19,724 bases of DNA from Candidatus Bathyarchaeia archaeon (GTDB lineage Archaea; Thermoproteota; Bathyarchaeia; Bathyarchaeales; Bathycorpusculaceae), in NCBI GenBank assembly GCA_038883795.1, contig JAVZLK010000029.1, positions 1 through 19,724 on the forward strand. The letters are read 5' to 3'. Below the pieces are notes generated by a model that worked only from the letters and a program-made list of their open reading frames with translations, was not told the DNA's origin and searched no databases. A program made the translations under genes and the position numbers. This document shows, piece after piece, positions 1,877 to 19,724 of this stretch (its first letter is position 1; each line of letters begins with the position of its first letter).

Positions 1877-2424
1877 TATCCCCTTTTTATTTACCTCCTC
1901 AAATTTAAACGGTGAGAAAGGTTCAAGACGAATTTGTAGAAACAACCATTTTCTCCCAATTTTAGCTCACCAACCTGATAACTATGGAGCTTTACAGCAG
2001 GCTTTTGTATGCGACAAGAGACTATGAAAGGGTTACTAAACAAAGAGGAAACTAAAAGAGGTTGAACTCGAAGACTTGCGGTGCAGTTTGAAAAGCTTTA
2101 TAGAAAATAATCCTCATTTTCCACTTAGAAAACGCATAAACCCTATAAAGTCAGTGTGACGTGCATAAGAGTCTAAACCATCGAGAGTCCACCTTATACT
2201 TCCGGGGTTCTCCTAAAACCCAACTCAACTGTTTCAGTCTCCCGTAAGAATTAGAGAAAAGTTAGGAATTAAGGGTAGACTTAAAAGAGAAAAACATTAC
2301 AATCCTGTGGATGGCGGACTATTAAACACCTAAAAAGACCTGAATAAAGCCTTCATAACATCCCTTACAAGCGGAGACTAAATAAGGCTTAAGTTAAAAA
2401 TTTCTTAAAAACAGGATTGCGTAT

Positions 2425-2571
2425 ATGCTTGAAAAATGTAAACATGGGGGAGAGCTTCTGGGAGAGCGAAAGGGAGACAAAGGAGTTAACCGCTATTATA
2501 AATGCCTAAAATGCGGATGCATCTTAATACTATCGGAGGACGGAGTTTTATACGAGGTTAGAAAGGGTTAA
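2425..2571 (+). CDS. 48-aa putative zinc-ribbon microprotein (CxH...CxxC)
   Basis: Hand translation gives MLEKCKHGGELLGERKGDKGVNRYYKCLKCGCILILSEDGVLYEVRKG*. An AT-rich TATA-like stretch lies at ~2395-2410. It is below the ORF-track length cut-off. Confidence 0.6.
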   Translation: MLEKCKHGGELLGERKGDKGVNRYYKCLKCGCILILSEDGVLYEVRKG

Positions 2572-3072
2572 ATTTCACGCTTTCCAATGAAGCCAAAGGC
2601 GGTAGTTAACGGTATTCTAAACTACTTAATCAATTTAGGAGGCAAAGTATGTTGATAAACATTAATGAAATTTTGAAAGCTAAGCGATGCAATTGGTGCT
2701 CCAAACTAAACTCTGCATCTTCGGCACAATAATTAGTTAAAAGCAATAAGCCTGTCAAATGAGGATGCAAAAACTGAAAGCATAACAACCTAATTCCTAG
2801 GCGTCATGAATAATCCAAAGCTATTTATTCATCTGTAATCGGCTTATAATGTTGTCCATTCTTATTTTCGCTTTGGAAGCATATTATGCTATGAAGCTCA
2901 TGAGGCAGATAGTATATTCTAAATAAAAATTTCTTCAAGAAAATTCATAGCAACTTCCAAAAATCACGGAATTTTCATTTAAAGTAACCTAAAACAAAAA
3001 GAAAACATAAACAACTGCTCATACCTCTTTTAAAAGCCTAACTTTGATTTTAAAAGTTTAAAACATTATTTC

Positions 3073-14576: not shown

Positions 14577-14999
14577 TTGAAAAGGAAAGTTCCAATTATT
14601 GACGAATTGTTTGAGTGGCCTTCTGATAATCCCAGGTTAATAGGCACTAAGTGCCCACTTTGTGGTAGTATACAATTTCCGAAGTCAAGTACTTGTAATA
14701 ATCCAGAATGTAACCATAGTATCCCTCCGGAGAAGTATTTTCTCAGCACTGAGGGCACGTTATATACTTACACAGTCCATGCTTATGGATTAGGTGAACC
14801 GTTTCAATATCATAAAGCGCCGTACATTGTCGGAGCCGTTGAGTTACCTGACGGAATAATTGTGTTAGGGAGGATAAAAGTTTTTGATGAAAAAAGCCTC
14901 AAAATAGGTATGAAGATGAAATTGGAAATAGATAAGTTGTATGAAGATGAAGAAAATGAATACTTAACTTACTTTTTTGTTCCGGTGGTGAATAAGTGA
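14577..14999 (+). CDS. DUF35-family Zn-ribbon/OB-fold protein (thiolase partner)
   Basis: CPLCG..QFP...CNNPEC zinc ribbon, LSTEGTLYTYT, PYIVGAVEL and LKIGMKMKL. TTG 14577 lies 6 nt after GAGGTG. The stop overlaps the thiolase start (GTGA). Confidence 0.92.
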   Translation: MKRKVPIIDELFEWPSDNPRLIGTKCPLCGSIQFPKSSTCNNPECNHSIPPEKYFLSTEGTLYTYTVHAYGLGEPFQYHKAPYIVGAVELPDGIIVLGRIKVFDEKSLKIGMKMKLEIDKLYEDEENEYLTYFFVPVVNK

Positions 15000-16228
15000 A
15001 GGAAAGCGCAATTGCTAGTGTGCAAATAACAGAATGGGGTCCGTCTGGTTCACCATACCCTCTTTTGATAGATACCTTGGCTAATGTCGCGGTAAACGTA
15101 TTAAGAGACGCAAAAATGACTCCAAGTAAGCTTGACGCTATAATTGCAAACACAACAGCCATACCATTTGATAATCCATCTTACATCACCACAAGTGCTC
15201 AACACTTCGCGCATAGACTTGCCGAAAGGATAGGCACAAAAGGTGCGCAATGTATCAATGTATGTGCAGCTTGTGCAAGTGCCTCTATATCTTTTGCGCT
15301 TGCAGACGCCCTTATAAAGACTGGTCAAATAAAAACTGCGCTAGTAGTCGGCATCGATAATTCTCCTAGAGGTTTTTATTTAGCTGCGCAGTCGATCCTT
15401 GATCCTGATCCATATGCGGCTACAATAAAGGTCATGGGCGCAACTAACCCTTCATATTGGGCTATGTGGGCTAGGAGGCGTGCGTATGAAATGGGTGTGT
15501 CTATTGAGAAGATAAAGGAAATTATGGCCATGGTAAAGGAGATCCAGAGTAAATATGGTGCAAGAAACCCGTACGCAAGGTATAAAAAGGAATTTTCGGT
15601 AAAGGAAGTTTTGGCCTCACCAATTGTTTGCGATCCTCTACATTTGTATATGATTTGCGCTACAAGTACCGGCGCAGGGGCAGCTGTTCTCACTAGCATG
15701 GAAAATGCTAAAAAAATTACTAATAAACCAGTGAAAATATTGGCATCAACAGTTGGCGGACCTATATATGGCGAACCAATGCCGCGACTTCGAGTATTTT
15801 CAACGGTAGGTGGTGAAAGAGCCTTAAAACCGTTTACTGAATGGCGCATGCCTATTGAGAAAGCCTATAAAATTGCTGGAATAACAGCTGACGATGTTGA
15901 TATTATTGAATGTCACGATACTAGTTGCTTTCACACTATAAATTGGATAGACCAGATCATGGGATGGGAAAGAGAAGAGACAGATAAACTTATTGAAAAT
16001 AGGCAGATTGGTCATGACGGAATGCTTCCTGTGAATCTTAGTGGTGGGACAGCGTCCTTCGGTGAGGCAGTAATGAGTCAGGCCTTTATCATGATACATG
16101 AACTATTTAAACAACTTCGAGGAGAGGCGGGTGAAAGGCAAGCAGAGAAGGATCTTCGAATAGGTGTCTGCACAGCATACGGAGCCTACGGTGCGTACGG
16201 TTGTATCGTGCTAGGAAAAGAATTTTAA
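14996..16228 (+). CDS. Thiolase-superfamily protein, SCP-x / 'lipid-transfer protein' type
   Basis: AACAS nucleophile motif, NPYARY, VLASPIVCDPL, CATSTGAGA, IECHD, PVNLSGG and QLRGEAGERQ; coupled to DUF35. Confidence 0.92.
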   Translation: MKESAIASVQITEWGPSGSPYPLLIDTLANVAVNVLRDAKMTPSKLDAIIANTTAIPFDNPSYITTSAQHFAHRLAERIGTKGAQCINVCAACASASISFALADALIKTGQIKTALVVGIDNSPRGFYLAAQSILDPDPYAATIKVMGATNPSYWAMWARRRAYEMGVSIEKIKEIMAMVKEIQSKYGARNPYARYKKEFSVKEVLASPIVCDPLHLYMICATSTGAGAAVLTSMENAKKITNKPVKILASTVGGPIYGEPMPRLRVFSTVGGERALKPFTEWRMPIEKAYKIAGITADDVDIIECHDTSCFHTINWIDQIMGWEREETDKLIENRQIGHDGMLPVNLSGGTASFGEAVMSQAFIMIHELFKQLRGEAGERQAEKDLRIGVCTAYGAYGAYGCIVLGKEF

Positions 16229-18258: not shown

Positions 18259-18786
18259 CTACCCAACACCAACACAGTTAAACTTTCGTCCTATACCTCG
18301 CGCGCGGTATTTCTCATGCTTTTTGAGGTCTTGTAGTTTCTTCTGATTCTCTCCACGACTAGCCAAAAAAGAAGGTTCTGAAAGCTTAGGAGGCAAGGGA
18401 AGCAATTTTGACCATAAAATGGCGCGGGGTGCGGGATTTGAACCCGCGCGGCCCAAACGGACCACAGGCTTAGCAGGCCTGCCCCCTACCAGGCTAGGGC
18501 AACCCCGCACCTCTGTTTTGTCTTTGGAGCTTTTATCTGTCTGTTTTAGGTCTATGCATGTTCTGTGTATTTTGGTTTTTGGTCTATGTATTAGGTCTTG
18601 TAGTGTCAATCCAACCATTTTAAGTTGTTCTTCCAGATAGTCTTTGCTGATTACATGGTATTGGAATTTTGGTTTGTGTGTCTCTGGATCAATGCCTAGG
18701 TAGTGCCTAACCCTACAATAGTTCTTGGTCAATATCTGTAGAAGACCTAGGTTTCCACAGACTTGACATTTAACCTTCATTTTCAT
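18259..18786 (-). CDS. CxxC protein reading in sense through tRNA-Ser; putative N-terminal fragment, int(N), of a split archaeal integrase
   Basis: The first ~92 codons are protein-like (CQVCGNLGLLQ...YCRVRHY...KPKFQYH), with a purine-rich leader and TTATATA ~50 nt upstream. The frame then enters the tRNA (VRGCPSLVGGRPAKP...). The part beyond the tRNA is probably chance read-through. Confidence 0.6.
   Translation of the reverse strand: MKMKVKCQVCGNLGLLQILTKNYCRVRHYLGIDPETHKPKFQYHVISKDYLEEQLKMVGLTLQDLIHRPKTKIHRTCIDLKQTDKSSKDKTEVRGCPSLVGGRPAKPVVRLGRAGSNPAPRAILWSKLLPLPPKLSEPSFLASRGENQKKLQDLKKHEKYRARGIGRKFNCVGVG
18420..18508 (-). tRNA. tRNA-Ser(GCT), intronless, CCA encoded
   Basis: Sequence GCGGGGTTGCCCTAGCCTGGTAGGGGGCAGGCCTGCTAAGCCTGTGGTCCGTTTGGGCCGCGCGGGTTCAAATCCCGCACCCCGCGCCA. 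Acceptor stem GCGGGGT/ACCCCGC, anticodon arm CAGGC-CTGCTAA-GCCTG, long variable arm, T arm GCGGG-TTCAAAT-CCCGC and G73 discriminator. Confidence 0.97.
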
Positions 18787-19724
18787 TCCTTCCTATTTCC
18801 TATTCATTTTCATTATATTGTTCAAAATAACTGGATATATAAGTATATCTACTCTAGAATTGTCTATTTGTATAGAGATTAGATTAGATAAAGATACAAA
18901 TGGTTCAAAGACTTTCATCCTAGAAAGACAAATGTTTCAATGTCTCAAATTAAGATCATTATTGTCTAGAATACTTTTGGAATACTTTAAAACAATATTG
19001 GGTTGTCTAAATACTTCAATCCTAGTCTATATTAGGAAATTTACATGTCTGAAATGTCTAAAATAGAACTTATTGTATCCAAGTCACCCTAGCATAAAGT
19101 CCTAAAATATGTGCTATAGACAAAGACAAAAACCAGAGTATATAGGGTTTTTTGAAGTTTGTTTTTGTGCTTCTATTCTAGGTTCTTTCATGGATTTTGT
19201 TCTTGTTATTATGGTAGGTCTTGTTTTTGTTCTTTACTCTAGGTTAAATCAAGACTAGAATCCATGGATTTTGTCTTGAATAGGTAAGACTTGACTTCAT
19301 TCTTTTCTAAAACTATACTTCTTTCCTATACTAATATATTGATTCTACTACATTCCTTTATAGAATCCTTGTTTTGGTCTATCATTGAAGGCTTAACCAC
19401 TATGGAAAAATGCCTTAGACCATTAGAACTTTATCCATATAAGCTAGTGACCTATCTACATTTATGGTCTAATCTTGTTCTAATTCTACACCTTATTCTA
19501 GATAGAAAGGAAACAAAAGTAAAAGAAGAGAAAAAAGAAAAGGAGGGTCTAACTAAATCTTATAATGTCTAAAAACTATGTTTTTATAGTGCTATCTATT
19601 TGGCTATGCAGTATCTATCTACTAAAACTATGTCTTATGTTCTCTAATTATGTCTATTGTATTAGGTTGTTTTGAACTATGTCTTTTGAGTGTTTGTCTT
19701 GTCTCTAATCTGTTCTTGTCTAAT
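18509..19724. mobile_element. Edge of a putative integrated element abutting the 5' end of tRNA-Ser
   Basis: Abrupt compositional change exactly at the tRNA boundary (AT-rich, no CG dinucleotide), plus the int(N)-like ORF entering the tRNA. The second att site and int(C) are not in the window. Confidence 0.6.

Follow-up and report, generated by a model that had tools for sequence, protein, structure and literature searches.

An open reading frame running into tRNA-Ser(GCT) in a Bathyarchaeia contig as the probable N-terminal part of a split SSV-type integrase

Does a short open reading frame (ORF) that runs in sense into an intact tRNA gene represent a protein of its own, a piece of a larger protein, or no gene at all? 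The question is raised by a contig of Candidatus Bathyarchaeia archaeon (assembly GCA_038883795.1, contig JAVZLK010000029.1), the whole 19,724 nucleotides (nt) of which are called the window here. It is one entire contig (C29) of an 81-contig, 2.18-Mb metagenome-assembled genome (MAG) that is 87% complete, with 3.4% contamination. The only tRNA gene that ARAGORN finds in the window is tRNA-Ser(GCT), which occupies 18420-18508 of the minus strand. On the same strand, an ORF of 175 codons (18786..18259) starts 278 nt 5' of tRNA base 1, has no stop codon up to and across the tRNA, which it reads in sense, and ends 160 nt past it. This confirms the arrangement described by an earlier reading made from the letters of the window. 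Only one of the three sense frames of this tRNA is open, and it is the frame used by the ORF. The motifs C7xxC10, R25-V-R-H28-Y29 and Y43-H44, listed in the sequence-only reading as CxxC, RVRHY and YH, are present within the 92 codons ahead of the tRNA, which encode no catalytic domain.

The part of the ORF ahead of the tRNA (18786..18509, minus strand; 92 codons) is int(N), the N-terminal part of a split tyrosine integrase of the SSV type, also called suicidal. That it was left here by the insertion of an element at tRNA-Ser(GCT) is, as an explanation of the whole picture, very probable. The assignment draws on the ORF itself, 131 homologues and their conserved columns, unsplit relatives with the PF16795 domain, and a structure model. 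Its significance comes from the family, not from this single locus.

An exhaustive HMMER search with the first 92 residues found 131 representative proteins with E<=1e-3, 15 of them with E<=1e-10. Nearly all are 50-250 amino acids (aa) long and share a conserved N-terminal region of about 55 residues. Positions C10, Q17, R25, H28, Y29 and Y43 are invariant in 52 aligned sequences, and each of C7, G14, L16, Y23, R27, K38, F41, H44, Y50 and D79 is shared by 90% of them or more; the motifs of the window ORF are also the conserved positions of the family. In the AlphaFold 2 (AF2) model the predicted local distance difference test score (pLDDT) is at least 90 over residues 1-60, which form four strands followed by helices. 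These residues make up a conserved beta-sheet domain containing C7, C10, H28 and H44, and residues 61-92 are a low-confidence linker. The four conserved cysteine and histidine positions make binding of zinc plausible.

The C-terminal tails of the homologues were compared with six-frame translations of 66 tRNAs from the window's genome and the relatives' loci. The tails of 58 proteins (out of 131) match a tRNA in sense from base 1, and those of 21 match a tRNA in antisense from its 3' end. The remaining 52 have no match; three of them are spurious long proteins, and several unmatched tails, for example those of P0001, P0091 and P0119, resemble sense read-through by eye. Thus the 79 tRNA-ending homologues are a lower bound. 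The suggestion that homologues of residues 1-60 might also abut tRNAs is therefore borne out, at least 79 of the 131 proteins ending in a translated tRNA and 52 of 79 metagenome loci, considered below, having one directly downstream.

Several other searches returned little. With the 92 aa as the query, a word-indexed protein search gave no match, and a search for longer proteins with alignment A1 gave none. A 395-aa protein found in the search for longer proteins with alignment A2 was considered as an unsplit integrase and rejected, as it is an upstream ORF fused to another int(N) with its tRNA tail. Alignment A3 found no relatives in the genome-contig or viral-contig sets, and a single protein as a query found none in metagenome contigs. 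The metagenome scan with the narrow alignment A4 yielded 155 relatives, and 80 loci were kept and mapped for N-domains, C-domains and tRNAs; this sample is biased by the query patterns.

The N-domain matches in 79 of these 80 loci. A tRNA lies directly downstream on the same strand in 52 of the 79 and on the opposite strand in three, and five are unsplit. Of the rest, 13 loci are interrupted within 150 nt by the end of the contig and 6 have no called tRNA; by translation, three of the latter six look like sense read-through and one like antisense. Loci in the antisense orientation are L117, L123 and L126. The N-domain family thus occurs in both orientations: 58 proteins and 52 loci read in sense into the tRNA 5' end, and 21 proteins and 3 loci read in antisense into the 3' end. 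The presence of both in one integrase family implies switches of the target half and strand.

Fifteen loci are complete insertions of 2,968-8,378 nt. Their order is uniform: a 5' tRNA fragment, int(C), further element DNA, int(N) and a full tRNA. A direct repeat starting from tRNA base 1 is present in all 15; with one mismatch allowed, it measures 38-45 nt in 14 of them and 29 nt in one. L126, a locus of the antisense type, is a mirror image in which 44 nt from the tRNA 3' end are repeated. By a comparison of frames alone, int(N), counted from base 1 of the full tRNA, and int(C), counted from the tRNA fragment, are in one and the same frame in 13 of the 15 complete insertions (L058 and L100 differ). 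Since the frame is the same in both halves, recombination within the repeat would restore one continuous gene. Both halves are open across the repeat in 12 of the 15; L107 has a stop. The G+C (GC) content of the element is below that of the flanks in 13 of the 15.

Little besides the integrase is shared by these elements: int(C) and int(N) are the only proteins common to all 15, and the next largest protein cluster occurs in five. Ten cargo proteins that were scanned include GNAT acetyltransferases, an S-adenosylmethionine (SAM) methyltransferase, a winged-helix regulator, a DUF5131 protein and a beta-helix protein; no replication or capsid family was recognised among these ten. In L047, L050, L056, L058 and L100, the attL fragment is preceded by 60 nt that resemble the end of another int(N) and contain the same TTGACC...CTTAAA motif; in L047 these 60 nt are nearly identical to the element's own attR side. 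These tails suggest tandem insertions at one tRNA.

The catalytic domain of the family is seen in its unsplit members. Seven genes (P0093, G348:C27, L048, L049, L051, L053 and L085) carry the N-domain and the catalytic domain in one ORF. P0093, of 401 aa, consists of the N-domain, a short tRNA-like stretch and a C-terminal PF16795 domain ("Archaeal phage integrase") scoring 27.9 bits at a cut-off of 27. In the 392-codon ORF G348:C27, from a related genome, the DNA between the domains resembles bases 1 to ~41 of tRNA-Arg(CCT); no tRNA matching this segment was found in that MAG, the best being 82% identical over 33 nt. The five metagenome ORFs, L048, L049, L051, L053 and L085, have 334-396 codons and an in-frame segment resembling a tRNA 5' half between the domains. 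In all of these unsplit relatives from G348:C27 to L085, a stretch resembling a tRNA 5' half, the mark of an attP internal to the gene, lies inside the ORF. No terminal overlap, which would point to circular DNA, was found in the contigs of the unsplit integrases L048, L049 and L051.

PF16795 (Phage_integr_3) is matched by all nine aligned full-length or C-terminal members, with a best E-value of 2.6e-13. The profile of these nine sequences compared with PDB sequences gives 3uxu, 4dks and 3vcf ("Probable integrase") as the best matches, with E of about 0.012, over the ...R...GR...HY stretch; the ...GR...HY motif of the family aligns with these integrase chains, which we take to be the SSV1 integrase catalytic domain. 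Residues R252, R297, K300, R343, R366 and Y376 (P0093 numbering) are invariant in the nine sequences, and they are presumably the catalytic R..K..R..Y set including the nucleophilic tyrosine.

Two complete insertions are at tRNA-Ser(GCT), the target of the window: L062 (6.7 kb) and L063 (3.3 kb), with repeats of bases 1-43 and 1-42, respectively. The repeats are identical or near-identical to the window's tRNA, the first 42 nt of which are present in both loci. Both loci use the window's frame across the repeat (...RGCPSLVGGRPAKP), and their int(N) runs ...RGCPSLVGGRPAKPV into the tRNA exactly as in the window. Their int(C) starts with RGCPSLVGGR(P/S)AKP and then leaves the tRNA (LNNIDQI...); its PF16795 scores are 36.3 and 34.3 bits. 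The N-part of the window is 40-48% identical to those of L062 and L063, and its identity to the N-part of G013 is 45%; the genome G013 belongs to the window's own family and has the same int(N)-tRNA-Ser(GCT) junction on a 201-kb contig. In the related genomes, a same-strand tRNA lies directly downstream in 5 of 14 loci, G013 included. The proposal of a split-integrase int(N) at the 5' half of tRNA-Ser is supported through these relatives, that is, by the 15 complete insertions and the unsplit forms, and not by the window itself.

The following order of events may be proposed. The free element would carry a single integrase gene composed of the N-domain, the linker, a stretch identical to bases 1 to ~42 of tRNA-Ser(GCT) in sense, and the catalytic domain; attP would thus lie inside the integrase's own gene (SSV-type, suicidal, type I). 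The element would then recombine, around the anticodon loop, with the tRNA-Ser(GCT) gene of the chromosome; it would come to lie upstream of the tRNA, and its integrase gene would be split. By analogy to L062, L063 and the other complete relatives, the att core probably comprises tRNA bases 1 to ~42-43, the 5' half through the anticodon loop (18466..18508, minus strand); a crossover within bases 1-43 would fit the SSV1 exchange site described in PMC8371274. After insertion int(N) would run into the reconstituted full tRNA, which is the picture in the window, and int(C) would be expected behind a 42-nt 5' tRNA fragment at the far end of the element, beyond the contig end. Excision would require whole integrase in trans, and supply in trans is discussed for split integrases in PMC8371274. 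The tRNA itself (18420..18508, minus strand) is intact, 89 nt long, with encoded CCA, identical to the copy on contig C59 of the same bin, and in this scheme it would be the reconstituted tRNA at the attR side. The tail of the frame 3' of the tRNA (18259..18419, minus strand) is probably meaningless read-through, as the tails of the homologues vary with what comes after their tRNA.

Several observations weigh against this reading. The window holds one half only, and an int(C) with a sense tRNA-Ser 5' fragment is absent from the 81-contig MAG, as is a second N-domain. The int(C) genes on contigs C2 and C7 of the bin were considered as the partner and rejected, being preceded by antisense tRNA 3'-like fragments. 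In G013, no tRNA-Ser 5' repeat or matching int(C) was found within 38 kb upstream of the junction. No attP or attB joint was found in Logan contigs of three sequencing runs, although these are contigs and not reads and speak neither way. A fold search of the N-domain model against PDB gave no match with E<=0.001, the best having E 0.07, and on their own the PF16795 match of P0093 and the PDB matches are marginal. Finally, stop-free sense frames through tRNAs are common in this bin (56 of 150, or 37%, for 50 tRNAs); as open frames of this kind are not unusual, the weight rests on the family and not on the single locus.

The int(C) genes just mentioned, C2:164177-165290 and C7:1-560 (both on the minus strand), are related to P0093 with E of 4e-37 and 2e-16, and each has an in-frame antisense tRNA 3'-like fragment; no N-domain matching them was found in the bin. 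Similarly, the only int(C) on the contig of G013 is of the antisense type. This candidate partner of the G013 int(N), G013:C33:42334, shares the contig and strand of that int(N) at a distance of 66 kb and was rejected, since the antisense tRNA 3'-like fragment that precedes it assigns it to another element.

With its other half missing, the window copy may belong to a whole element truncated where the contig stops, or it may be an orphan relic. In the latter case int(N) would be genuine, and the remainder of the element, including int(C), would have been deleted or have decayed, leaving a fossil junction unable to excise. Orphan int(N) relics do exist, because that of G013 has no partner within 38 kb on a 201-kb contig; moreover, G348:C54 retains a 23-residue remnant of int(C) with a stop just before the tRNA, several related copies have stops, and the 938 nt upstream of the window's int(N) contain no convincing ORF. 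However, the int(N) frame of the window is intact and has all the conserved residues, and 12 of the 15 complete relatives keep both halves open and in frame. The run from which the window probably comes is a hot-spring metagenome; there, two sequence variants cover the element side, their depths adding up to about 50-60, compared with 30 for the host flank, and one 874-nt Logan contig extends about 604 nt beyond the window end; therefore more element DNA exists. We consider a relic rather unlikely for the window, and prefer an integrase half whose partner may still lie beyond the contig end. Neither BLAST nor a k-mer comparison of contig ends turned up a continuation of C29 in the MAG.

In the three runs, the summed contig depth over the tRNA within window positions 18400-18550 is about 2,300-3,000, compared with 30 in the flank, and loose contig ends join several other sequences to the window's tRNA-Ser in the same sample. 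Therefore many organisms or elements of the sample share this tRNA sequence.

A second explanation, that the ORF encodes a stand-alone small zinc-ribbon-like DNA-binding protein adjoining tRNAs, such as a regulator of a mobile element, and not an integrase part, is very improbable. It would agree with the calling of most homologues as proteins of 50-250 aa, with the lack of a curated family naming the domain, and with the possibility that the piece is still expressed alone after integration. Of the curated libraries, PHROGs, NCBIfam and Atlas, together with the phage and plasmid collections, gave no named match to the N-domain; in Pfam, PF22415 (PSV ORF131-like) alone responded, at 14.7-16.6 bits (E 0.008 for 16.6 bits), below its cut-off of 27. 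However, the small size is accounted for by frames running into tRNAs, the seven unsplit genes join the domain to the catalytic domain, and a separate gene would not need to keep its frame across the repeat, as 13 of the 15 complete insertions do. The third explanation, a chance open frame in the AT-rich spacer upstream of the tRNA and no gene, could appeal to the 37% of open sense frames through the genome's tRNAs, but has practically no chance given the 131 homologues (15 with E<=1e-10), the invariant residues and the confident AF2 model of residues 1-60.

Returning to the split integrase, the DNA of its linker has properties that point beyond coding. Counted from tRNA base 1, the interval -40..-21 contains a TATA-like pentamer in 41 of the 43 distinct int(N) genes of the sense type, compared with 13 of 129 control windows elsewhere in the ORF. 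Aspartate codons in the last 90 nt are GAC and GAT in the ratio 103 : 15, as opposed to 16 : 29 elsewhere in int(N) (Fisher p 2e-10, a value overstated by the kinship of the sequences). In 12 of the 15 complete relatives, these GAC codons are part of TGACC sites, which lie at about -44/-45 and -68/-69. The native regions upstream of attL fragments contain, by eye, purine-rich and TATA-like stretches at similar distances. In the window, the counterparts are the TATA-like GATAAAAG at -29..-22 (18530..18537, minus strand), which by comparison with the pentamers of the relatives may be a replacement promoter, and two AGACC sites (18549..18585, minus strand) at -45 (18549-18553) and -77 (18581-18585), corresponding to TGACC of the relatives. 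According to the legend of S2 Fig in PMC5495485, insertion of pTN3 reconstitutes a full tRNA and parts it from its original promoter. The hypothesis is that the linker contains, inside the integrase ORF, a candidate replacement promoter and putative protein-binding sites.

The DNA upstream of int(N), 18787..19724, is probably a part of the element cut by the contig end, which lies 1,216 nt upstream of the tRNA. Its GC content is 29%, compared with 37% for the coding part of int(N) (18509-18786) and 39% for the remaining contig. The statement of the sequence-only reading that DNA of foreign composition ends exactly at the tRNA 5' end is thus imprecise: the strongly AT-rich DNA is that upstream of int(N), and the composition of int(N) itself is near that of the contig. 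The pentamer GTCTA occurs in these 938 nt 11 times on the plus strand and twice on the minus strand; 2000 mononucleotide shuffles gave a mean of 0.96 and a maximum of 5. Read in the orientation of int, it is TAGAC, the word of both sites within the int(N) linker of the window. The repeat is not common to L062, L063 or G013. The GTCTA/TAGAC repeats could be arm-type sites, sites of a regulator or an origin.

The same bin contains other integrases near tRNA-Ser genes. Among its four full tRNA-Ser(GCT) genes, those of C29 and C59 are identical, and those of C19 and C4 represent a variable-arm variant. In C59:5988-7416, C19:14398-15783 and C4:7358-8516, an intact classical integrase of the pNOB8 type ends 40-100 nt upstream of the tRNA-Ser(GCT) on the same strand. 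All three belong to PF00589; that of C59 has 432 aa and scores 65.6 bits, and that of C19 is interrupted at ~14582-15310 by a run of N (read as X). The 3' flanks differ among all four tRNA-Ser(GCT) genes and therefore point to several loci, several strains in the bin, or stacked elements. In C17 (24931-25959, plus strand), a 342-codon ORF starts in antisense inside a 62-nt tRNA-Ser 3' fragment (25011-25072, minus strand) beside host genes, with phage-like genes beyond. It matches PF16795 with 77.8 bits and therefore is int(C) of a second, conventional SSV-type family that uses the 3' half in antisense. Three paralogues with 43-45% identity to it, C23:547-1428, C31:17342-18205 and C38:579-1448, all have a contig end at a distance of about 550 nt.

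Among 400 other genomes drawn from across the phylum, six contain the N-domain, and all six are of the window's own family or order. Of the 20 genome-contig loci with titles, 19 belong to "Candidatus Bathyarchaeota/Bathyarchaeia archaeon" MAGs. The twentieth, a weak match (L142, E 4e-6) in a Limnocylindrales bacterium MAG, may reflect a mis-binned archaeal contig, or a chance or distant similarity.

With at least 155 metagenome loci and 131 protein clusters, the family is large, and most of its members use the rarer 5'-half target. It provides a sequence rule by which small Bathyarchaeia elements can be delimited, an N-domain ORF running into a tRNA together with a 42-nt tRNA 5' repeat before a PF16795 ORF. 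It also supplies natural unsplit genes for biochemistry, and raises a testable question, how a tRNA is expressed after an element has been inserted between it and its promoter. In annotation, such ORFs should be labelled as integrase N-fragments instead of hypothetical proteins, and their tRNA-derived tails should not be taken for protein.

One possibility that would unite these observations, offered tentatively and somewhat short of an even chance, is a Bathyarchaeia-wide group of suicidal integrases in which a single gene combines an enzyme with a new C-C-H-H beta-sheet N-domain, an attP made of a sense tRNA 5' half, and a portable promoter, similar to the transcription factor B recognition element (BRE) and TATA box, with phased GACC sites, both set in the codons immediately ahead of attP. 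Such a gene would move cassettes of 3-8 kb without replication or capsid genes of their own. If this is true, the promoter and the GACC sites would keep the tRNA expressed and let the synapse be organised in spite of insertion at the 5' side.

How does the family compare with known integrases? No description of it was found in the literature on suicidal or SSV-type integrases, PF16795 and Bathyarchaeia elements, although supplementary host tables (of the review PMC8371274 and of Badel et al. 2020) might include members. In the review, suicidal integrases with PF16795 are those of the SSV, pTN3-like and pT26-2-like families and are framed as belonging to hyperthermophilic archaea; its main text never uses the word "Bathyarchaeota". 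The passages of a paper on Bathyarchaeia viruses that mention integrases speak of no split ones (PMC10848311). One SSV1-like split integrase, in a Nitrososphaera element, is noted in PMC6563490. Of the earlier suggestion of an undescribed virus or plasmid family, the first part stands, as the family is apparently undescribed; its virus or plasmid nature is unproven, with no replication gene among the ten cargo proteins.

The only named resemblance of the N-domain is to the PSV ORF131-like domain (PF22415; PDB 2x5c), and it stays below the accepted thresholds; in Foldseek, the match to 2x5c has a probability of 0.66, E 0.37 and 23% identity. That domain comes without an attached function.

Integrases of the pNOB8 type (type II) share the tRNA target and the position on the same strand beside a reconstituted tRNA. 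However, in type II the attP is external to the integrase gene, which survives integration undivided, whereas the window ORF encodes no catalytic domain and continues into the tRNA. The window ORF is therefore not of type II.

With SSV1 (Fuselloviridae, type I), the family shares the PF16795 catalytic domain, the partition of the gene at the borders of the insertion, and probably exchange around the anticodon loop; in SSV1, int(N) and int(C) lie at the insertion borders and exchange takes place around the anticodon loop, as described in PMC8371274. The 44-bp attP of SSV1 matches the 3' end of tRNA-Arg (PMC3293823), whereas here the target is mostly the 5' half in sense (58 against 21 proteins; 52 against 3 loci). 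The N-terminal domains are also unlike, and no virus genes were seen among the tested cargo of the relatives.

The closest parallel in the use of the tRNA is pTN3/TKV4 of Thermococcus. The pTN3 attP is inside the integrase gene, which is disrupted by integration, and shares 41 bp with the 5' part of tRNA-Leu, the minimal site being Leu2-44 including the anticodon (PMC5495485). Likewise, the window family has attP in the gene, a gene split upon insertion, and repeats of bases 1 to 38-45, that is, the tRNA 5' part through the anticodon, and the window has its element DNA on the 5' side of the reconstituted tRNA. Recombination at the 5'-distal part of a tRNA is considerably less frequent, and pTN3 is among its precedents (PMC6563490). 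A tblastn search with P0093 against 72,556 plasmid and 50,697 phage records gave no match with E<=0.01, the presence of pTN3 among these records not having been checked. The unsplit integrases of the window family have 334-401 aa, whereas the catalytic tyrosine of pTN3 is residue 428 (PMC5495485). The family further differs in its distinct C-C-H-H N-domain, in its Bathyarchaeota MAG hosts, as opposed to Thermococcales, and in the size of its elements, 3-8.4 kb. Thus the 5'-half target is not new, being preceded by pTN3, whereas the family, its C-C-H-H N-domain and its host range are apparently described here for the first time.

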